Assembly: GCA_026770705.1 (NCBI GenBank)
Contig: JANJGN010000011.1
Location: 71,982,001 to 72,046,000, forward strand
DNA from: Isurus oxyrinchus
Taxonomy: Eukaryota
Length of the DNA stretch: 64,000 nucleotides
Reading direction: 5' to 3'
Shown here: positions 23,626 to 42,500 of the stretch, piece by piece
How the letters are laid out: each line of letters begins with the position of its first letter
How positions within the stretch are numbered: the stretch's first letter is position 1
The notes under the pieces: model-generated
Seen by the model: only the letters and a program-made list of their open reading frames with translations
What the model was told of the DNA's origin: nothing
Database searches by the model: none
Program-made: the position numbers and the translations under genes

Positions 23626-24140
23626 AGGGATAGTTCAGCTGTGTAATGAAATCACACAAACTTGAAATGCTGTTGTGACTGTTTAGTGCAAAGATATATT
23701 TATGACAGAGCTGGGGATGGGTGCCCAGGAGGGCTCAGGGAGTCCAGAAGTAAGTGAAACACACCTGCCAGTGGTGTGTTTCAACCCAGACACTGCATTT
23801 GCACTGAATTCCTGGTGCCCTGACCAACTTGCAAGAGTGAACGTGATGACGATTCGCTTGAGTCAATTTCAAATGAATGATTTAAAGGGTCACTGCATGG
23901 ATGACAGTTGGATTGTAGATATGGAGAAAAAGGGGAAGAAACTGGCATTATGGAGTCCCAACCACGCAAGGCTGCGACTCACTTCTTGGATGCCTCCATC
24001 TGATGTTGCTAACTGTAAAAGCATGCAGGGAGATACACTTAGATAAAAGCAAAATACTGCGGATGCTGGAAATCTGAAACAGAAACAAAAATACCTGGAA
24101 AAACTCAGCAGGTCTGACAACATCTGTGGAGAGGAATACA

Positions 24141-24175
24141 GTTGATGTTTTGAGTCCCTTTGACTTCATCAGAAC
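24141..24175 (-). ncRNA. Decayed hammerhead ribozyme motif
   Basis: GTT-CTGATGA-AGTCAAAGGGACT-CAAAAC-ATC-AAC. The GAAA box is mutated. Confidence 0.5.
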
Positions 24176-27100
24176 AAAGGTAATAGAAAAATGAGGTGAA
24201 ATATAAGCTGGTAGAGGGGGGTGGGACAGATAAAACTGGATAGGGGGCCAGTGATAGGTGGAAGCAAAGAGAGATTGCCAAAGATGTCATAGACAAAAGG
24301 ACAAAGGGCTGTTGACGGTGGTGATATTATCTAAGGAATGTGCTAATGGGGACATTAATGGTAACAAGCAGGACAAGCTAGTGGGGGTGGGGTGGGAGGA
24401 AGGGATTGAAATGGGCTAAAAGGTGGAGATAAAACAATAGATCAAAATAAATTTAAAAATTGGTGGGAAAAGAAAAATATATTTTTTTTTTAAATGATAA
24501 ATTATTGGAAAAAGGGGGATCAGAAAGGGGGTGGGGATGAAGGAGTGAATTCATGATCTGAAGTTGTTGAACTCAATATTAAGTCCGAAAGGCTGTAAAG
24601 TGCCTAGTTGGAAGATGAGGTGCTGTTCCTCCAGTTTGCGTTGAGTTTCACTGGAACATTGCAGCAGGCCAAGGATGAACATGTGGGTATGAGAGCAAGG
24701 TGGTGTGTTGAAATGGCAAGTGACAGGGAGGTCTGGATCATGCTTGAGGACAGACCGAAGGTGTTCCTCAAAGTGGTCACCCAGTCTGCGTTTGGTCTCT
24801 CCAACGTAGAGGAGACCGCATTGGGAGCAGCGAATGCAGTAGACTAAATTGAGGGAAGGGGTCACTATCATGATTTTGGGAGGGAGAGGAAGGTGTGTGG
24901 GCGGATGCACGGGAGATGGGCCAGACACGGTTGAGGGCCCTGTCAACCACCGTGGGTGGAAAACCTTGGTTAAGGAAGAAGGAAGACATGTCAGAGGAAC
25001 TGTTTTGGCAAGTAGCATCATCAGATCAGATGCGACGGAGGCGTAGGAACTGAGAGAATGGGATGGAATCCTTACAGGAAGCAGGATGTGAGGAGCTGTA
25101 GTCAAGGTAGCTGTGGGAGTCGGTGGGCATTGGTGGACAGTCTATCACCAGAAATTGAGACTGAGAGGTCCAGGAAGGGAAGTGAAGTATCAGTGATGGA
25201 CCATGTGAAAATGATGGAGGGTTGGAAATAGGAAGAAAAATTAATAAATTTTTCCAGATCCAGTCGAGAGCACGAAGCGGCACCGAAGCAGTCATCGATG
25301 TACCGGAGAAACAGTTGTGGAAGGGGGCCTGAGTAGGACTGGAACAAGGAATGTTCCACATACCCCATAAAGAGACAGGAATAGCTGGGGCCCATGCGGG
25401 TACCCAAAGCCACACCTTTTATTTGGAGGAAGTGAGACGAGTTTAAGGAGAAATTGTTCGGTGAGAGAACAAGTTCAGCCAGATGGAGGAGAGTAGAGGT
25501 GGATGGGAATTGTTCAGGCCTCTGTTCGAGGAAGAAGTGGAGACCCCTCAGACCAACCTGAAAACAAAGTCAGGGTTGGACCTGAGAGAACGGAGTTCAG
25601 CAACTTCAGAGAGAGACAGGTTAGAGTGGGTGAGAGGAGCAGAGAAATTGAGACGACTGATGTCACGCCGACAGCTCTCAATGAAAAAATCAAGAGCAGG
25701 TAAGAATCCAAAGGGAGGGGTCCAGGTGGAGGGAGAATATTGGAGGCGGGTAAAAGTAGCCGTTGAACGGGGAGGGAACTCCTGCCCAAAGAAGTGAGCA
25801 TGGAGATGAAGGAGGTGGAAGAAGAGTTCAGCATCGTGCTGAGCCCGAAATTCATTGAGGTGAGGGTGTAAGGATATGAAACTGAGTTCTTTGCTGAGCA
25901 CTGAACATTCAGCATCAGAGAGGGGAAGGTCAGAGGGTGTGGTGAATACACGGCCAGGGCTGGGATTGGAAGACAGGATGGGGACAGAGGGACAGGCAGG
26001 GGTCGAGGGTCCTGGATGGGCGTTAGTGTTGATGAGTTGTTGGAGCTTGCATTTCTTTGCACCTGAAAGAAAGAGACAAAGTTTCTTGTTGAGGCGTCGG
26101 ATGAGATGAAGAATAAAATGAAACTGGGGGCAAGGACAGCTTAGAGATAAGGTGCGTTGGTGCTGCTGGAGGGAGAGGTCGAGTGTGTTCATATGGCGGC
26201 GCATGGCACTGAGTGTGGATCTCAGAATGCGACGAGAACAGCTGTCCCAGAACCATGATAGTGTCCCCCTTGTCCTCACTTATCACCCCACCAGCCTCTG
26301 AGTTCAAAGGATCATCCTCCGGCATTTCCGCCAACTCCAGCATGATGCCACCACCAAACACATCTTCCTTTCACCCTCCCCCGGCAGCTTTCCAAAGGGA
26401 TCGTTCCCTCCGGAACACCCTGGTCCACTCCTCCATCGCGCCCTACACATCAATCCCCTCCCACAGCACCTTCCCATGCAACTGCAGAAGGTGCAACACC
26501 TGCCCCTTTACTTCCCCCCTCTTCACCGCCCAAACACTCCTTTCAAGTGAAGCAGTGCATCACTTGCACTTCCCTCAATTTAGTCTACTGCATTCGCTGC
26601 TTCCAATGCGGTCTGCTCTACGTCTGGAGAAACCAAACGCAGACTGGGTGACTACTTTGTGGAACACCTTCGGTCTGTCCGCAAGCATGACCCAAACTTC
26701 CTTGTCACTTGCCGTTTCAACACACCACCCTGCCCTCATACCCACATGTCCGTCCTTGGCCTGCTGCAATGTTCCAGTGAAGTTCAACACAAACTGGAGG
26801 AACAGCACCTCATCTTCCTACTAGGCACTTTACAGCCTTGCAGACTTATTATTGAGTTTAACAATTTCAGATCATGAACTATCTCCTTCATCCCCACCCA
26901 CTTTCTGATCCCGCTTTTTCCAATAATTTATAATTTAAAAAAAAATATATTTTTCTTTTCCCATCTATTTTTAAATTTATTTTGATCTATTGTTTTATCT
27001 TCACCTTTTAGCCCATTTCGATCCCTTCCCCCCACCCCACCCCCACTCGGGCCATCTGCCACTATCTTGTCCTGCTTGTTACCATTAATGTCCCCATTAG

Positions 27101-27261
27101 CACATTCCTTAGATAATATCACCGCCGTCAACACCCCTTTGTCCTTTTGTCTATGACATCTTTGGCAATCTCTCTTTGCCTCCACCTATCACTGGCCCCC
27201 TATCCAGTTCTACCTGTCCCATCCCCCTCGACCAGCTTATATTTCATCTCATTTCTCTATT

Positions 27262-27298
27262 ACCTGATGAAGAGTCATAGGGGCTCGAAATATCAACT
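27262..27298 (+). ncRNA. Hammerhead ribozyme motif (core intact, flanking stems decayed)
   Basis: CTGATGA-AGAGTCATAGGGGCTC-GAAA-TATC-AACT. Confidence 0.55.
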
Positions 27299-27770
27299 GT
27301 ATTCCTCTCCACAGATGTTGTCAGACCTGCTGAGTTTTTTCAGGTATTTTTGTTTTTGTTTCAGGGAGATGCACTTGCCTGCCGATGGGAAGAAGAAGTC
27401 TGCTACTGAGAACAAAAAGGCATGGTGAGCAGGAGGACTGTGGTCCTATGTTCATGGTTACAGTGCTGGAAGTGGTTTAATGAGCTAAACACAGCAGGAA
27501 AGTTGGGTACAATGGCACATTCAGCTACTTCCAGGCCTGTATGTAACAAGACCTAGACAAAATTTATGCATGGCCTGATAAGCGACAGGTAAAATTTATG
27601 CCACACAAATGCCAGGCAATGACTATCTCAACAACCGAAGATCTGATCGATGACATGCAATAGCATTATTATATAAAAACAAAAAAACTGCGGATGCTGG
27701 AAATCCAAAACAAAAACAGAATTACCTGGAAAAACTCAGCAGGTCTGGCAGCATCGGCGGAGAAGAAAAG

Positions 27771-27809
27771 AGTTGACGTTTTGAGTCCTCATGACCCTTC
27801 AACAGAACT
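27771..27809 (-). ncRNA. Decayed minimal hammerhead ribozyme motif
   Basis: AGTT-CTGTTGA-AGGGTCATGAGGACTC-AAAAC-GTC-AACT: stem I AGTT/AACT, stem II, palindromic ACGT stem III, GUC site. Two core substitutions. Confidence 0.6.
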
Positions 27810-27853
27810 TGAGTTCGAGTCCAAGAAAAAGTTGAAATATAAGCTGGTTTAAG

Positions 27854-27935
27854 GTGTGTGTGTGGGGGGGCGGAGAGAGAGAGAGAGAGAGGTGTGTGTG
27901 TGGGGGGCGGAGAGAGAGAGAGAGAGAGAGGTGGA
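27854..27935. repeat. Duplicated compound microsatellite (TG)n-Gn-CG-(GA)n
   Basis: Two adjacent copies of GGTGTGTGTGTGGGGGG(G)CGGAGAGAGAG... inside the Penelope 3' region. Confidence 0.9.
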
Positions 27936-30129
27936 GGGGGGGTGTGGTTGTAGGGACAAACAAGCAGTGATAGAAGCAGATCATCAAAAGATGTCAACAA
28001 CAATAGAACAAAAGAACACATAGGTGTTAAAGTTGGTGATAATATCTAAACGAATGTGCTAATTAAGAATGGATGGTAGGGCACTCAAGGTATAGCTCTA
28101 GTGGGGGTGGGGAGAGCATAAAAGATTTTAAAATATTTAATAATAATGGAAATAGGTGGGAAAAGAAAAATCTAAATAATTTATTGGAAAAAAAAGGAAG
28201 GGGGAAACAGAAAGGGGGTGGGGATGGGGGAGGGAGCTCACGACCTAAAGTTGTTGAATTCAATATTCAGTCCAGAAGGCTGTAAAGTGCCTAGTCGGAA
28301 GATGAGGTGTTGTTCCTCCAGTTTGTGTTGGGCTTCACTGGAGCAATGCAGCAAGCCAAGGACAGACATGTGGGCAAGAGAGCAGGGTGGAGTGTTAAAA
28401 TGGCAAGCAACAGGGAGGTTTGGGTCATTCTTGCGGACAGACCGCAGGTGTCCTGCAAAGCGGTCGCCCAGTTTACGTTTGGTCTCTCCAATGTAGAGGA
28501 GACCACATTGGGAGCAACGAATGCAGTAGACTAAGTTGGGGGAAATGCAAGTGAAATGCTGCTTCACTTGAAAGGAGTGTTTGGGCCCTTGGACGGTGAG
28601 GAGAGAGGAAATGAAGGGGCAAGTGTTGCATCTTTTGCGTGGGCATGGGGTGGTGCCATAGGAGGGGGTTGAGGAGTAGGGGGTGATGGAGGAGTGGACC
28701 AGGGTGTCCCGGAGGGAGCGATCCCTACGGAATGCCGATAGGGGGGGTGAAGGGAAGATGTGTTTGGTGGTGGCATCATGCTGGAGTTGGTGGAAATGGC
28801 GGAGGATGATCCTTTGAATGCAGAGGCTGGTGGGGTGATAAGTGAGGACAAGGGGGACCCTATCATGTTTCTGGGAGGGAGGAGAAGGTGTGAGGGCGGA
28901 TGCGTGGGAGATGGGCTAGACACGGTTGAGGGCCCTGTCAACGACCGTGGGTGGAAAACCTTGGTTAAGGAAGAAGGAGGACATGTCAGAGGAACTGTTG
29001 TTAAAGGTAGCATCATCGGAACAGATGCGACGGAGGCGAAGGAACTGAGAGAATGGGATGGAGTCCTTACAGGAAGCGGGGTGTGAGGAGCTGTAGTCGA
29101 GGTAGCTGTGGGAGTCAGTGGGTTTGTAATGAATATTGGTGGATAGTCTATCACCAGAGATTGAGGCAGAGAGGTCAAGGAAGGGAAGGGAAGTGTCAGA
29201 GATGGACCACGTGAAAATGATGGAGGGGTGGAGATTGGAAGCAAAATTAATAAATTTTTCCAAGTCCTGACAAGAGCATGAAGCGGCACCGAAGTAATCA
29301 TCGATGTACCGGAGAAAGAGTTGTGGAAGGGGGCCGGAGTAGGACTGGAACAAGGAATGTTCCACATACCCCATAAAGAGACAGGCATAGCTGGGGCCCA
29401 TGCGGGTACCCATAGCCACAACTTTTATTTGGAGGAAGTGAGAGGAGTTGAAGGAGAAATTGTTCAGCATGAGAACAAGTTCAGCCAGACGGAGGAGAGT
29501 AGTGGTGGATGGGGATTGTTCGGGCCTCTGTTCAAGGAAGAAGCTAAGGGCCCTCAGACCATCCTGGTGGGGGATGGAGGTGTAGAGGGATTGGACGTCC
29601 ATGGTGAAGAGGAAGCGGTTGCGGCCAGGGAACTGGAAATTGATGATGTGACGTAAGGTGTCAGAGAAATCACGGATGTAGGTGGGAAGGGACTGGACAA
29701 GGGGAGAGAGAAAGGAGTCAAGATAACGAGAAATGAGTTCATTATTATAGTTGAACTCCTGACCACCAAAAGCCTGAGGGGTCACCATTGACAAGAAATT
29801 TAACTGGACCATTCATATAAATACTGTGCCTGCAACAGCAGGTCAAAGGTTGGGAATTCTCTGTGAGCAGTTCACCTCCTGATTCCCTATCTCCCTTTCC
29901 ACTATCTATAAGGCACAGGTCAGGAATATGATGCAATACTCCCAACTTGCCTGGATGAGAGCAGCTCCAATAAGACTTGGCACCATCCAAGACAAAGCAG
30001 CCTGTTTGATTCATGTTTAATTTGGTTGGCTATAATTTATGTTAAAGTAAAAGCTACAAAAAGTGGAATCTTGTTGATAATTTCTTCACCTGAGCGTCAT
30101 TCAATAAATTTGGTTATTTTGGTTTACAG

Positions 30130-33975: not shown

Positions 33976-34134
33976 ATGTACAATACCAACCATTATAAGT
34001 TAAGTTAAAAGCTACTTTGCATTGCTTTATCCTTTCCAAAACTTCTTGTCTCTATTATTTATATCATAAAACCTTTACTTTATTCCTTTTGTTAACGTAA
34101 CTATAAAGTAGATTTTTCCTCCCCACCTTACCTC

Positions 34135-34596
34135 TGAAATGGGATAATTGAAATGATTTCATATTAAAATTGATATAAAAACGTGCATTAATAAGTTTTA
34201 GAATAGACAATTTAACAGCTTTACAATAGACAAATGTAGTGAGATCTCTTTTGAGGCATGATGGGACATTTAGACAATACTATAGGCATAATGGGATATG
34301 TAACTAGCACCGTGGGAGCCTAGCTTAATGGCCTTCACCGGATGGGCAAACAAATGTTCAGGCGATAAGAGCATAGACAAGGAGGCGATAGATCCAGACG
34401 TTAACAGCCTCCCAGCCTGAACAATCATTGGGTTTTGTGATGTATGTAACTGAAGGTTGTAACTAAAAATGTTACACAGCCTTGGTATCAGGGTCACCCT
34501 TTAGAATCAGGCTATGTTTCTCCCAGCATATGCTTGTAATAAAGTTCTTCATTACTTGAAGCTCACAGACTTGAGAGTATTTTTATTACCAGAACA
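34135..34596 (+). repeat. 5' LTR
   Basis: TGAAATGGGATAA...TTACCAGAACA. AATAAA at 34538-34543. Aligns end to end with 39084-39576. Confidence 0.92.
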
Positions 34597-34598
34597 AT

Positions 34599-34616
34599 TG
34601 GCATAATTGGCAGGTT
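34599..34616 (+). promoter_or_regulatory. Primer binding site, decayed tRNA-Ser type
   Basis: TGGCATAATTGGCAGGTT versus the complement of the vertebrate tRNA-Ser 3' end, TGGCGTAGTCGGCAGGAT (14 of 18; two differences are CpG-type). Lies 2 nt after the LTR. Confidence 0.7.
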
Positions 34617-35931
34617 CCTTGCAATATTGGTCGCTGGCACCAGATTGAATGTTGTCAGTAGAGGATGGGTGAATATGTTCATTTACCACCCATTAGATAG
34701 GGTGGTCGCCATTCAAGATGGGAAGCCAGTGGTCTGGTTTTAGAATTCAAACCAGAGTATGGGTCTGTGAGTGGAGTAGCTGAGGACAGTGTGGCACCAA
34801 ATAACTAACGGCCGTGCGGTAAAGTGGTACAGGCTGTTTCCTAGTGAGAGCTCTGAGTATCCCAAGTAAATGGAATAGACTGTTTCCTAATGTCTGGTAC
34901 AGTAAGAGAACCGTGAAAACAGGAAGGTTCCATTTCCTAGTGAGGAAAAATAGTTGTAGTCAGACTATAGACGTAATATCAGCCACAGCAGGCAAAAATT
35001 TAGATTAGGGTCTCGAAAAGTCCCCAACAGGATTTTTGGCAAATAACCTAAAAAAGTGAAATTTTTAAAAAATTGATGTAAGTTACTAAAGCTTTTTGTG
35101 CTGGGGAGAGAAAGAGATAGAGAGAGGTACCCCTGGATGGCAGTGGGGTGGGGAGGGAGGTGGGGTGGATGGTGGGGGATGTATGTGGGGGGGTGTGGAG
35201 GGAGATGATGTTAAAGAGCAGTGACATTCAGAGGCTCATTTTGATTGTCCCTGTAGAGGGAAGTCTCAAAGATCCCTTTTCCCCCACCATTGCTACTTGA
35301 AGTTTTGTTTAGAGTATGAATGTTTTAAGTGTTCAAATTAATGTTAGGAAAATGGAAATATATATATCTTTATATATGTGTGTGTTTGTGTGCAATGAAG
35401 AATTTGTGTGTGAGCTTTACTGTGGTTTCTTCCCTAAATTGTAAATTAGAGTTTTAGCACTTTGAGTTAAAAAAAAACTCACAATGAGGATTGTTAGTCG
35501 GGTTAAAGGAAAGCAAAGCAATGCTTTAAATTATAAAATTCAAGTTGAGATTTCCAGCCAAAAATCACAATTTGAATATATTCTAAAAAGATACAGCAGG
35601 TTTCAGACTAGCAGGGAGTTAAGTCTTTCCACCAGCAGCTTCAACTTTCAGGCTGCTGAATTAATCCATTCCATCTCAAGTAGAATGGACCCTTGTGCTT
35701 TTATTTAGAAATAACTGCAAATGCAATAACATTTCTAGCAGCTTGAAGAATCTAAGAAGTTATCTGCAGATTTTCAATGTGGCATAGACATAGGTTAGAG
35801 GCTTTACCTTTAAATAAAATGACTTAACCCATTCAGGCTAATTGTTATCTTCTGCTTGGGAACAGGAGATCTGTCAGCAGAGAAGCAACCAGCAGCTCGA
35901 TTAACTATTTTGTTTCAGATAAATCAGAGCA

Positions 35932-38845
35932 ATGGCAATCTGAAGAACAGCAGCTGCTGTGATCACCCTCTTAACAGTAACAGAAGCATGGGAGGTGCCT
36001 ACCGTGAACGTCAACAAAACCACCTGTCTGCATCCAGGACAATACGTGCAGCTACCTAAAGGAGGGAATGGAGGGTGGATAAGGAAACCAGGCAGTTGGA
36101 TTTCTGATGGAGTCACTACTAGCAGTCATTGTGTTATTCAAGTTGTGTTATCAGAAAGGGTGAATGGGACACAAATAACACTGCCTGGAACCGGGACCAT
36201 GTTCCGCCTACCAAATCCATGGTCCTCTTGCAATGGTACAGTGGCATCTAGGCTGTTCGAACCCATGGGGTTTGCCAGTGCCTCTTGCTAGCGGCACATC
36301 ACCAAATCCAACTGAACCTACACTATCAGTATGGTTAATGTGACTGATGTACAAAGTGTTTTTGGTCCAGGTTCTGGGCTGGGTATTTACTATTTAGCAT
36401 GTAAGGAAACTTGGAATAGTGGTATTAATATCTTAAAGGTGAAGACAACTATGAACATCATGGCCAGATGGACTAATCTGCCCCATTGTCTGGGAACCAG
36501 GATTAGAGGGACAATACTGTCAAGAACGGTGTTTGGATGTTATTAATCAGCTTGGTTGTAGCGATACACAGTGTTTGATTAGTCAACTTGCGGATATCAG
36601 AAACCCACTAAGCGCCAGCCCTCATGTCACCGACCCGGATAGGGTAGTCAAAATTGGGAAACCCAAAGTGGTATTACATGATGTCATGATGGTGACCTTA
36701 GAAGTGACCTACAATTTGACCGGGCTCATCCAAACTCTATTAGCAGTTTGTGGTGATCATTAGAATTGGCTAGTTGAGCAAGTGTCTGATACACGATTTC
36801 CACACCTGCATTACCCTGGGAAATCCAGGATATCCAGAGGAAGAGATGGAGTTTCTTGGGGGATGTGGGGGGTGGTGTTTGTTTGGAAGTGCCAATTCAG
36901 CCTTGAACTCACTGCAAATCTCCAATATAAATGATTATGTCTCTTGGGTAACCAAGGAGACCACAAGAGGGCTGCGGTTCACAGCATGGGGAACTGAATA
37001 CACACTTATGGCTGTTCAGGTCCTGGGAGAAGATATGATGGAGGGATTAAAACTTCTCTCCCAGGTCATCATGAATGTAACAGATTTGAAGTCTAAGGTG
37101 GGGTGGGGTGGGGGGAGGGGGCTGCATGTGACATGTTGGCTGCGGACTTGACAGATAACATTAGGTCAGATGTTGAAGATATAAGATTTGGTACTGCGCC
37201 TTGACACATATATCAGGGTGTGGAGAAATTAGACCTTATCAATTTACAGGAAGATGGCAGGAATTAGTAGTTACACAGCCTTTTAGAGGAGGTATGGGAG
37301 ACACAATAAAGTTTCTGGTAAGTATACCACAGGACATACTAATGGAACATACTGGGGGGAAATAAATTCAAATCCCTGGAAGTGGAAAAGAGTGCGTTGG
37401 TGTACCAGCTGGGATCCCGCAGACTGGGTGACTGCTTTGCGGAACATCTTCGGTCTGTCCGCAAGCATGACACAGACCTCCCTGTCGCTTGCCATTTCAA
37501 CACTCCATCCTGCTCTCACGCCCACATATCCATCCTTGGCTTGCTGCATTGTTCCAGTGAAGCTCAACACAAACTGGAGGAACAGCACCTCATCTTCCGA
37601 CTCGGTACTTTACAGCCTTCTGGACTGAATATTGTGTTCAACAATTTTAGATCATGAACTCTCTCCTCCATCTCCACCCCCTTTCCAACCCCCCCTTTTT
37701 TTCCCAAGAATTTATATAGATTTTTCTTTTCCCACCTATTTCCATTATTTTTAAATGTATTTCCATCCATTGTTTTATCTCTACCTTTTAGCCTATTTCT
37801 ATCCCTTCCCTTCACCCCACCCCACCCCCACTAGGGCTATCTGTACCTTGCTTGTCCTGCTTTCTACCCTTAATTAGCACATTCCTTAGATAATATCACC
37901 ACCTTCAACATCTCTTTGTCCTTTTGTCTACGACATCTTTTGGTTATCTCCACCTATCACTGGCCCTCTATCCAGCTCTACTTGCCCCACCCCTCCCTTA
38001 AACCAGCTTATATTTCACCTATTTTCTATTTTTACTTAGCTCTGTTGAAGAATCATACAGACTCGAAATATTAATTGTGTTCCTCTCTGCAAATGCTGCC
38101 AGACCTGCTGAGTTTTTCCAGGTATTTTTATTTTTTTTTAGGATCCTGGGATTATCTGGTTCTGGGCTCGAATAGCACCCTTTTAATGACAACACAAGAA
38201 TGTTGTACTGAATCGCAGCATTACATCTTACATCATTTGCTCCTCTAGTACCCTGAATCCATCAGCCATTGTGGTGTCAGTTAACTCTCTTGAAAAGGCC
38301 TGTAAGGTAATCCAAACCTCCCCTGCACAGTGGTGCTTTTTGATGGGCAGGACAAAATTCAAATGTGGAGGATTAGAATACAACAATAACCATACCTCCT
38401 GCTTACAGCTCACTGACTCCTTTATGGTGGAGGACTTTCATCTAGTGGGTAGGGTCCTCACTGGTTATGTATTCAGTCCATGGTGGGACAGTACATTAAA
38501 TATCGATGACACCCCGGGCCAGATAGCTTGGGTAGTGGCGGAAAGGGCCCTAACCACTACCAGGAGGTTTATGGAACAAAACCATCGAGCAATTATGAGG
38601 GGCAGGTAAACCTAGCCACAGGAGAGGCTGGGAAACTGGAAGACTCAGCTAGAAATCAAGTCAAAGTGGCAAGAATGCAGTTTAACTGGTGGGTAGTAAG
38701 GAGGATGGCAGCGGTTGTTGTGTCTATTGAGGTCCTGCTAGTTAGTCTCTGTATTTGCTGTTACCAGAGACTGATGGTATCCCAAGCAATACAGATGGTA
38801 ATGTTGGCTAATAAAGGATATAACCCCAGTATCCACCACAACTGA
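35932..38845 (+). pseudogene. env: Disrupted env-like class I fusion glycoprotein gene (F-type features)
   Basis: Acceptor TTTTGTTTCAG at 35908-35918. Signal-like MAI*RTAAAVITLLTVTEA|W. Several N-x-S/T sequons. QRKR|WSFLGDVGGG at 36835-36870, then LFGSANSALNSLQI, a Cys cluster, and C-terminal TM AAVVVSIEVLLVSLCICCY. Multiple stops and frameshifts plus a Penelope insertion. Confidence 0.8.
37418..38140 (+). mobile_element. 5'-truncated Penelope-like element inserted in env
   Basis: RRLGDCFAEHLRSVRKHD...LEEQHLIFRLGTLQPSGLNI plus a 3' region like 27674-28240. TSD GGATCC at 37412-37417 and 38141-38146. Confidence 0.92.
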
Positions 38846-39071
38846 AGTTCCCCTCCCAAGAAGCTTGGGAACATTTATGAAGATTTTGCTATCAAATGAA
38901 ATGATCGTTCCAGACCTAGCTTAGGGCTTTAGGACTTAGGCAAAGCCGTAAGAGAACAGTAGGGTAGCAGGCCCGAAGCCCAATGGACTCTAGAATATCC
39001 CTAGAGCCACTGGTAGGTGGAAGGTCTTGGGAATATCCTGCCTGGGCCAGGTAGTGCCTGACCAGAGGTCC

Positions 39072-39082
39072 AAAAGGAGGGA
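39072..39082 (+). promoter_or_regulatory. Polypurine tract
   Basis: AAAAGGAGGGA one base upstream of the 3' LTR TG. Confidence 0.8.
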
Positions 39083-39083
39083 T

Positions 39084-39576
39084 TGAAGTGGGATAACTGA
39101 AATTATTTCATATTCAGATTGATATTAAAATGTGCATTAATAAGTTTTAGAAATTAACAGCAATAGACTAAACAAATTTAGTGAGATCTCTTTCTAGGCA
39201 TGATGGGACATTTAGACAAAACTATAGGCACAATGGGATATGTAGCTAGTACGGTGGGTACCTAGCTTAATGGCCTTCACCGAATGGGTAAACAAATGTT
39301 AGGGCAATAAGAGCACAGACAGGGAGGCGTTAGACCCAGACATTAACAGCCTCCCAGTGAGAGAATAGAGAAGACCTGCAGCCTAAACAATCATTAGGTT
39401 TTGTGATGTAGGTAACTGAAGGTTGTAATAAAAACTATAAATATGTTACACAGCCTTGGTATCAGAGAGAGATGCCCTGTAGAATCAGGCTGTGTTTGTC
39501 CCAGCATATGCTTGTAATAAACTCCTTGCTTACTTGAAGCTCACAGGCTTGAGAGTGTTTTTTTTTAACCACAACA
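39084..39576 (+). repeat. 3' LTR
   Basis: TGAAGTGGGATAA...TAACCACAACA. TATAAATA at 39436-39443 and AATAAA at 39516-39521. Confidence 0.92.
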
Positions 39577-42500
39577 CTTCCCATGGAGTATCTTTTGTTC
39601 TCGTTGAAGTTATTGGTGCAGCACTGCTCATGGAGGTTTCCTCACTATTGAGTCCCGTGACCAGCATTTTAACAGATAAACATTCACCATGGTCTGGTGC
39701 TTGACTGTCTCACTCCGGCACAATGTTCAACATCAGCATCAAAACATAAAACTTTCCTCAATTTAAAGTGTAACTGCAGGCCCCCAGAGCAATAGAAAAC
39801 ACCTAGGATAGAATTGGATTTGCAGACAGAGAGGGCCATAAAATTCCCTGGGTGGCCTTTTTGCCACCCTCCTGCCTGTATCTGACCTGTCCGCAATTTT
39901 ACAGGTCACTTAGTGGTGTCTTCCAGCCCTGGCTGCACTTTTGAGGCCTGTGGGCAGAGTTCAGGGACGGGGCAGGGGAAGCTCAGCAGGTTATCTTGAT
40001 TGGGTCTTGGGTGGGCCTCCCTTACTGGCTCCCTTTTGAAATCTGATTGGCTGGCAGCTCTCTGAGGCAGGACTTCTGCCCAAGTTAGGTGTGAAAAGCC
40101 TGCCTCCAGTCAATTAACCCTCCTTGGAGTATTAAATGGCCCCAGGACAGGGATGCATTCTTCGCCGAATTCTCTAGTAATGAAAATGTGAAAAGTGGCC
40201 AACAGAAAAATTCTGCCCCTAATCACAAACAACACAGTTGGCTCAGAAGTTTTATTGAATTGTTTAAATTGTATAAATCACTCAAATCACACATTTCTGA
40301 GTTGTAAATAGTCTGTTTTCCTAAGTATTTTAGACTGCTGGAGCAAGCTGAAAATTGCAATCTAGTGATGCATTTCTCACACAGAAAGGCTTTTCTACAA
40401 GGGTTAGAACTCCCTTGGATTTTTCTATATGCTGTGGTGCATTCTTTGTACTTTTCACTCCAAGATGGTGAAAACTATAATTCCATGATGCATCTTTTTC
40501 ATACAGCAAAATTTTGTCAACAGCGTCAGAAAACACTAGAACATAGGCAAATTGAAATTTCTAATTCAAGCCACAGACTATAGGCTGAAGGACAGGCCTA
40601 TGTTGGTAAACTTCTTACAGAAATTTATAACTTTAAACTCACCCATAAAATTTGGTTATTTTGAGTTTTGAAAAATTGTGTAAAGCTTTATCTATTGTGT
40701 TATGTTGTACATGTTAGGAAAGTATTTCATGGTCCTATTGACTCCACAGAAATGCAGCAGGCTGGGACTTCTAGTTGTTCAATCACCCAGAACTCCATCC
40801 CACAAACACCATTTAATAGGGCATCACAGAAATGCCCACTGCGTCTGTGAGAATGCTGTTCAAAGAAGGGAAAGCTAAGGCCTGCATTGACTAGAAAAAA
40901 TAAGCAAACTTTTTAGCATCTAATTCGGAAGCAGAAGAACCACATAGCGAGGGCTAATTAATCCTTTTGGGTTTGAGTGCCTTTTGCTCTTGTATCTTCC
41001 GGCTCTATTTTAGGCCAAGAATGTGACCTATGCCTACAGTCAGCGGATTTAGGTCTCACTGGCACTAATGGGCAATTTGGGCATGACTCCTGGGAAATGC
41101 AGGTCAAGCTAGTATTGCCCACAAATTGTAGACGCAGAAAAATTGAGTGCCTGTTCGCTCTGAAATGCAATTAGCTGAACTTCTAGGAGGAAAACCAGTG
41201 GATGCACATTCTGCCTCAAATTATACTCCTGTCAGAGATAAGGTGGAATTGATCAGCTCCCACACTTTGTGCAATTTCTGGGCTGTTATTTAAAACTGTG
41301 TACACTCAATGCTAAAGAAATAAAATAGAAGATGAACATATTGAGGGAATTATTTTGCTATTATTTAACATTCAATCAATTAGTAAATAAATAAGTGCCT
41401 TTTAAAGAAATCACTGATTTTGAGAAGGATGATAATGAAAAGAGGATAACATGAAGAGAAGGAGTAAGTAAAGGTCAACTCAACCCATGAGTTCTTGCAC
41501 TGTGTTCATCTGCCACAACTTCTTTGATCCCGCATGGTGCGCCACCTGCTTTTTCACACACATGGCAGCTCAGAGTCTTTCATCCAGGAGAAACGAGCAA
41601 GTAGAACTGAGTACTTCACAGAGCTGAAGGAGTGGGGAGTGGGTGAGAATATGCCACTATCCCAGCAGAGGCCAATAAAAATCATGTCTATGCTTCTGCA
41701 GTTGGACCCAGAGACATGTTATTTAGGAAAGGGAGGATGTTTGAGAAACATTATGCCCACCTGCAAGGCCCTGAGGACAACATTTGAGATGTGCGGCAAC
41801 TGACAGGTGCAAGAGAAAATACTGCGTTAGGTTGGTTTGTGTTCACTTTGGAGACTGTTCTATTAAGGTGAATATGCACTGAAGACCTGCTTTGTTATTC
41901 ATGGAGATTACAGAAAAAAGGGTGCTGCTGTTCCATCTGATTTATTTAATCAGGTGGTTATTATTGATGTGGACCTGTAGGGGAAAAGAGACCTGATGTA
42001 TCCTAATGCTGTAGAATGGGTACAGGATTAAGGGTTAGTTCTTTATTTAAAGGGGGAGAAGGAGTTATGACACTCATGGCTAAGGTCGGCTGTGTCAAAT
42101 TGGTTGTGTCTGATGCCTCTTGCAGCAGTCACTGAGGAGTCCACTGAGTTACTAATGATCTATTCCATTTACTTATGTCCCTAAAGCTGCTGAGCCACCT
42201 TTCTGGATCATGAACTTAAGCAGTAAAAGTAGATTTACCTGTTCTTGTATATATCTTGAGTTTTGGGTCTGGAGTTTCCCACAGGCTTCGGGAACCCAGT
42301 GTCAGGATCAAATGGGGGTCTTGAGCCCAGACCTGCCAGCAACAAGTCCAAGGATGCAACCTTGCAGGAAGTGACCTCCTAATTGCACCTCCATGCACAT
42401 CATCTTATTAAGGGCAGTGAGCAGGTTCCTGATGCTGCAGGTCCAATCAGAGGGCTGGTAGCTCTGGAGCCTCAACAGCCCAACCAGGAGAGATGGGCAT

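Follow-up and report, generated by a model that had tools for sequence, protein, structure and literature searches.

The locus described here raises the question of how an endogenous retrovirus (ERV) came to carry an envelope gene (env) and no enzymes of its own, and to which retroviruses it is related. The element occupies positions 34135..39576 of a 64,000-nucleotide stretch (hereafter the window) of contig JANJGN010000011.1 from Isurus oxyrinchus. A first-pass annotation had described it as an env-only long terminal repeat (LTR) element encoding an F-type fusogen, resembling the fusion (F) proteins of paramyxo- and pneumoviruses, and had proposed a loki-like, non-autonomous lineage in cartilaginous fish. 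Our results suggest, with a probability that we put at roughly 0.75, that it is a decayed copy of a multi-copy ERV family that lacks pol, encodes a predicted F-type Env and likely depended on helpers of snakehead retrovirus (SnRV)/epsilonretrovirus grade, not on lokiretroviruses.

We searched 4.98 Gb of genome and found at least 55 matches to the LTR (40 of 241 candidates scored) and at least 150 to an env piece (150 of 293 candidates scored), both lower bounds because only part of the candidates was scored. Our sample comprised 10-kb stretches around 59 env-family insertions, 58 chosen by env score and one by its LTR pair, and the absence of reverse transcriptase (RT) from a copy applies only inside its 10-kb stretch. 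These insertions belong to two subfamilies: A, which has the LTR type of the window copy, and B, which has a different LTR and an env ~40% identical in protein. Fifty of the 59 carry a common non-coding cassette and no RT (31/39 in the first set, 19/20 in the second), four have RT and no cassette, and five have neither. The cassette was also absent from all 19 stretches selected by RT, six of which belong to insertions with the same env. The common layout runs from the LTR through a serine-type primer-binding site (PBS), a leader, the non-coding cassette, an integrase tail, env and the polypurine tract (PPT) to the second LTR. The minority layout is gag, protease (PR), RT, tether, RNase H, integrase (IN) and env; its LTR, PBS and env types are the same, and the cassette is lacking. 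In L048, L054 and L113-L115, gag-PR-RT-RNase H-IN-env lie in this order between LTRs. Pol-bearing partners that share the LTR and env type of the window copy are L026/L112 and L030 (71-75% at the DNA level), while L048 and L113-L115 are those of subfamily B. We therefore observe both marks of a non-autonomous ERV, namely many copies with one enzyme-less structure and a partner that shares their LTR and PBS and encodes the enzymes. The autonomous partner for which the first-pass annotation had proposed a search exists and, as most of the 59 insertions are pol-less, it is not the case that all other copies carry gag-pol. We conclude that the family is a real multi-copy, pol-less ERV that amplified without its own enzymes.

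In subfamily B, the return from cassette to integrase sequence falls within 17 bp of a single position in 26 of the 34 cassette-type copies, on different contigs. The cassette is non-coding, because shared stops occur throughout each sense frame (38-46 per frame across 1857 columns, against 0 across the 499 codons of the env fusion core); in the leader and the 5' part of the cassette, stops are shared among the B copies in all six frames. This count is a better test of coding than codon periodicity, which was seen in 0/12 cassette windows and has little power at a divergence of 0.04. Net divergence between A and B is 0.039 for the cassette and 0.26-0.31 for env, a disparity best read as transfer of the cassette by recombination. 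At L052:5663-5847, B cassette copies carry tandem integrase tails, A-like then B-like, which mark a recombination point between the lineages. L058, L061, L062 and L139 are cassette-type B copies that retain tether/RNase H, an intermediate structure, and the first three are in frame at the env start. Separately, three LTR matches ~400 kb apart (G000:C3:199466289, 199872152 and 200269191) have near-identical alignment spans and are likely a segmental duplication.

We propose that pol-less RNA would have been packaged, reverse-transcribed and integrated by helper Gag-Pol, that is, by complementation in trans as defined in the portions covered of PMC8922424 and PMC10435555. The cassette may have passed between two helper lineages by recombination or template switching, and env would have been carried along within the 3' half, often already non-functional. 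The window copy would afterwards have lost the end of the cassette and the integrase tail through a microhomology deletion and have received a Penelope-like insertion. It lacks the 3' part of the cassette and the integrase tail, an extra 1.5-2 kb that its relatives keep, and its 4-bp microhomology junction (35870..35873, +) is contiguous in no other fetched copy. Thus, the env-carrying non-autonomous lineage of the first-pass annotation stands as a pol-less amplified family, but the env-only layout is an accident of the window copy, because the junction is unique to it among the copies fetched. Origin of this copy from a spliced mRNA was ruled out, since it retains the acceptor tract and its junction is one of microhomology.

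The partners were then placed by their RT. The RT of L030 scored 75 bits against murine leukaemia virus (MLV), 74 against foamy virus and 52 against Ty3 RT, and partner RTs are 35-50% identical to that of SnRV. L086, the only relative in viral contigs, has an RT equal to the SnRV row in the supplement of the lokiretrovirus paper. We built two trees, a quick one of 56 rows and a careful one of 25 chosen rows; the references were labelled by motifs and Pfam, and each RT row is a piece read in one frame, in some cases covering less than half the length. The shark RTs, plus one further protein, form a 97/94 clade within a 95/96 group that also holds epsilon- and gamma-type rows and is sister to SnRV. 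The loki-like row is excluded by a 99/96 clade of SnRV and the shark, epsilon- and gamma-type RTs, and forcing it together with the shark RTs was rejected by the approximately unbiased (AU) test (p=0.010). The shark RT thus lies among SnRV, epsilon- and gamma-type RTs and outside the loki branch, the sister of all other retroviruses; by eye, the RT and RNase H of the partners resemble the SnRV and walleye dermal sarcoma virus (WDSV) rows of the same supplement. The partners' gag carries a CCHC knuckle. They also have a tether and RNase H, which are not diagnostic of lokiretroviruses because other retroviruses have both. A closely related RT was present in 13 of the 19 RT-picked stretches (L117-L130, e.g. 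G000:C7:117189500-117199499 and C1:155419500-155429499), which had no match to the env profile; these may carry another Env type or none, and would then show Env swapping within one RT clade.

Next, we consider the envelope. When 1.84 billion proteins were searched with an env profile, 40 matched at E<=0.001. Ten of them were looked up, and the named ones come from catshark, from cyprinid and other teleost fish, and from turtle; the closest named protein homologue of the window env belongs to Scyliorhinus torazame. P0006 is an intact teleost homologue (profile E 2e-65), and the intact fish homologues have 410-419 residues after the basic site. XP_056102113.1 and XP_026091406.1 are among the intact fish homologues. 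The arrangement is that of an F-type protein, with a basic cleavage site, a hydrophobic peptide rich in Gly after it, and ~400 residues left up to the C-terminus. The predicted order is a strand and helix before cleavage, a long helix after the fusion peptide, a beta-rich middle and a second helix before the anchor. The gamma-type hallmark, an immunosuppressive domain (ISD) and CX6CC in a short transmembrane subunit, is absent: all frames of the window env and the intact homologues are free of CX6CC and of ISD-like motifs. Env and RT gave no match in word-index searches of proteins ('longer' only), which is weak evidence, and an Atlas search with a broken shark env piece had low recognition and returned unrelated matches. 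Several intact homologues (the P0006 cluster, with 444 members; P0007/P0058/P0059; P0008) are annotated as uncharacterised cyprinid proteins. A Carassius cluster of four members, intact in two species, is a possible domesticated gene, and Caretta caretta has a partial homologue.

The fold was assessed with a model of the env of the sister copy L067 (X at stops), built on a 43-row alignment to which homologues and SnRV Env had been added. In a Foldseek search of PDB, all matches listed were paramyxovirus or pneumovirus F proteins, nine of them at E<=0.001, and no gamma- or beta-type transmembrane subunit, haemagglutinin (HA) or filovirus GP2 was among them. The best match, 1ztm, points to the three-domain F fold, which both subunits build, by its E-value (1.2e-5, probability 1.00), yet with a TM-score of 0.26 on a model of pLDDT 48. 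Against BFVD, 26 matches at E<=0.001 were mostly viral glycoproteins, including the Env proteins of walleye epidermal hyperplasia virus 1 (WEHV-1) and WDSV, baculovirus F, parainfluenza virus 3 (PIV3) F and feline foamy Env. Rows 1, 4 and 12 of this search come from a negev-like virus, a filovirus of fish (Wenling thamnaconus) and an abalone herpesvirus. P0006, which was in no fold target and is thus independent of the modelled sister copy, was compared by language-model features: it has 197-204 of these in common with the Fusion_gly, Baculo_F and Gypsy-env clusters and matches them at 0.93. As the model matches F and a separate method applied to an intact protein agrees, the predicted Env likely has a paramyxovirus F-type fold, though the global superposition is poor; the F-type fusogen proposed initially is upheld on both counts.

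We then asked whether pol-less copies had used this Env. Every shark copy examined has a broken env. One junction, which deletes the cleavage site and fusion peptide, is common to eight of the 17 A copies; two more lost both otherwise, and seven, like the window copy, retain them. In subfamily B, the same frame offset near the env start is found in 16 of 26 copies, and 7/26 are in frame. Because these env lesions are shared among copies, sub-lineages multiplied without a working Env, and the picture of an Env-carrying family has to be qualified to this extent. Across the 499 codons of the fusion core, the B copies have no stop in common, and the integrase tail has shared frame shifts. Env variants common to at least three copies fall on third positions in 46% versus 32% (p=8e-4), and for the shared env variants of the A copies the values are 55% versus 35% (p=0.008). 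The control, the dead integrase tail, gave 46% versus 28% (p=0.003). As the tail is equally enriched, the test cannot tell whether env was selected or helper sequence was taken up repeatedly, and the better reading is that env is a passenger in the pol-less family.

Several points weigh against this account. The copies were selected by score, so the fractions given above are not a census. The RT tree contains a single loki-like row, identified by eye against the supplement, and the partners' place between SnRV and the epsilon/gamma types would allow assignment to SnRV/epsilon grade only, not to a genus. On the envelope side, Pfam searches with env pieces and intact homologues returned nothing relevant and no PF00523, and no F emerged when PDB was searched by sequence with a single protein and with two profiles, so that no sequence-level match to F was obtained in either database. 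Likeness to SnRV Env in sequence was not above shuffles: the HMMER and hhalign comparison is collinear over 248-312 columns, with a score of 23.2 against a shuffle maximum of 24.7. A first env model (32 rows, shark-only, one of them in the wrong frame; pTM 0.22) gave no clear match in BFVD or VIA-align. The second is itself weak (pLDDT 47.7, pTM 0.35, TM-score ~0.26 to F), its target is 41-51% identical to the window pieces, and SnRV Env is one row of its alignment. Finally, the fusion core without a shared stop leaves room for a period of function.

This last point bears on the rival that we consider the least improbable, although still rather unlikely, in which env stayed under selection in the pol-less lineage for some time, as this lineage provided helpers with Env or spread by reinfection, before later sub-lineages lost it. 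The open fusion core beside a frame-shifted integrase tail, the third-position enrichment and the fusion peptide kept in 7/17 A copies and the window copy are all consistent with it. Nevertheless, the dead integrase tail has the same third-position excess, repeated uptake of helper 3' halves can account for the signal, and large sub-lineages spread with broken env. We give less credit to the suggestion that the resemblance to F merely reflects the generic class I order of helix, strand and helix in a poor model. It draws on superpositions with TM-scores of 0.13-0.27 and rmsd >18 Å and on the lack of a sequence match to F, but fails to account for the absence of other class I proteins (gamma/beta transmembrane subunits, HA, GP2) from the PDB matches listed, and for the separate method that leads from a different, intact protein to the same families.

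A non-autonomous lokiretrovirus lineage in cartilaginous fish, as the first-pass annotation had it, is now very improbable. In its favour, lokiretroviruses have an F-like Env and a dual RNase H (PMC7947760, in the part covered), and non-autonomous loki families exist, though gag-only in the sections covered of the Bhikhari preprint. The AU result already largely refutes this reading, and the SnRV/WDSV-like RT and RNase H and the long N-terminal Env domain, missing in loki Env by eye, also speak against it; in the table rows covered of the loki survey (PMC7947760), 0/4 chondrichthyan genomes were positive. Hardly any weight remains for a collection of ordinary proviruses that each lost gag-pol after insertion, with no real non-autonomous family. 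The one-off last deletion of the window copy and the existence of full-length copies would fit, but the common cassette occurs in no RT-bearing copy and 26/34 B copies have one integrase junction. Because junctions are shared, independent loss is refuted for the family and holds only for the extra deletion of the window copy. We therefore retain a pol-less family with a predicted F-type Env and SnRV/epsilon-grade helpers.

Known examples of non-autonomous ERVs that are mobilised in trans include ETn, recKoRV and EAV-HP. Like the non-autonomous ERVs of the Bhikhari preprint, in the part covered, the shark family kept LTRs, PBS and PPT, lost its enzymes, has a foreign or non-coding middle and reached many copies; unlike them, it retains env instead of gag and joined one cassette to two different LTR/env lineages. 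Its partners' RT branches next to that of SnRV and SnRV-like ERVs, which include the elephant shark CmiERV lineage I (PMC4422223, in the sections covered), and the layout of SnRV Env is alike by eye (a long N-terminal part, a basic site and a ~400-residue Cys-containing subunit). However, the shark RT clade lies in the sister group of SnRV with epsilon/gamma-type rows, and the shark family has a simple Ser-primed genome and mostly pol-less copies. The predicted Env models of WEHV-1 and WDSV ranked 3 and 5 in the BFVD search (E 1.5e-6 and 8.9e-6) and likewise lack gamma-type hallmarks, according to the parts covered of PMC9967133 and PMC3758190. They differ in length (1159-1317 aa versus ~730 in the shark family), TM-scores are only ~0.2, and the RT motifs of these viruses differ from those of the shark partners by eye. 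Lokiretroviruses also have F-like Env with an R-x-K-R site, tether and RNase H in the covered text of PMC7947760, but the shark partner RT falls outside their branch, the shark Env has ~300 residues before cleavage where loki Env is short (by eye), and no coding cassette is found at the place of smc. Foamy Env and paramyxo/pneumovirus F, of 'class Ib'-type topology in the covered part of PMC11468914, have the same predicted helix/strand order, and the model matched feline foamy Env at E 5.7e-4 (BFVD). In contrast to foamy virus, the shark Env has a cleavable signal peptide instead of a long leader peptide, and the partners' gag has its CCHC knuckle.

The anatomy of the window copy, all on the + strand, agrees closely with its first description. 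Its proviral frame is complete, with a 5' LTR (34135..34596) and a 3' LTR (39084..39576), both TG..CA, a decayed tRNA-Ser-type PBS (34599..34616) and a PPT (39072..39082), flanked by an imperfect 4-bp target-site duplication (34131..34134 and 39577..39580, one mismatch). The LTRs are identical at 409/458 aligned bases (89%; Kimura two-parameter distance 0.116), giving an age of ~26 to 260 million years, depending on whether a rate of 2.2e-9 or 2.2e-10 per site per year is taken, as used in the covered parts of PMC7947760 and PMC4422223. At the PBS, the sequence is a decayed version of a site present in 12 other stretches, the complement of which was found within tRNA genes, called Ser in 3/4 loci tested. 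The leader and the 5' part of the cassette (34617..35873), common to subfamilies A and B, are followed by a splice-acceptor-like pyrimidine tract and AG (35904..35918, a sequence match only). The 5' part of the broken env (35932..37417) would encode a signal peptide, a Cys-containing N-terminal domain, an F2-like strand and helix, the basic site (36835-36846), the fusion peptide and a helical region; the 3' part (38147..38845) would encode a Cys-rich beta region, the second helix, a transmembrane helix and a short tail. Together they span ~728 codons (~720 had been estimated) with all the env motifs quoted, ~420 of them after the basic site (earlier ~400), and are broken by ~8 frame changes and several stops.

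Between the two parts lies a later insertion of 729 bp (37418..38146), presumably the 3' end of a Penelope-like element. It has a 6-bp target duplication and is missing from all three sister copies checked; the name Penelope, given earlier too, comes from a GIY-YIG C-terminal motif, and Pfam gave no match to the insert supporting it. Direct and inverted copies of the same element cluster at 24000-29800 of the window. Without the insert, the internal region measures ~3.76 kb (~3.8 kb expected), and none of the relatives' gag, RT, tether, RNase H or integrase is matched in the window, as the initial reading held for RT, RNase H and integrase. The window copy is dead, with no sign of a host role.

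F-like Env is described as a loki feature by Wang and Han (PMC7947760), and Fernandez et al. (PMC11468914) show that the Env of foamy viruses is F-like and assign that of orthoretroviruses to a class of its own. Epsilon Env is treated as distinct and uncharacterised by Henzy and Johnson (PMC3758190) and in PMC9967133, the latter considering it a recent development or acquisition. Han (PMC4422223) reports SnRV- and epsilon-like ERVs in elephant shark and does not describe their Env fold, and Viro3D (PMC12583693) names Metaviridae, not fish retroviruses, among F-like proteins; all six are cited for the sections covered. In the literature searched, which does not cover Calcraft et al. 2024, where it may be said, nothing describes the Env of SnRV or of epsilon type as F-like. 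Because the enzyme-carrying relatives group with fish retroviruses and not with lokiretroviruses, F-type Env is likely commoner among retroviruses than thought and, as the model also matches the predicted walleye epsilonretrovirus Env, probably extends to the orthoretroviral side. The family pairs a predicted F-type Env with an SnRV/epsilon-grade RT and links by fold to WDSV and WEHV-1 Env, so that the origin of retroviral Env becomes testable with existing sequences. It is also a clear example of a single non-coding cassette carried along by two helper lineages. More tentatively, F-type Env may be an old, widespread retroviral envelope, retained in loki, foamy, snakehead, walleye epsilon and shark/teleost/turtle viruses, with gamma- and beta-type Env as replacements, an idea we hold as possible and no more than that. 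If true, an ancestral F-type Env would account for the uncharacterised Env of epsilonretroviruses and overturn the recent-acquisition view expressed in the covered part of PMC9967133.

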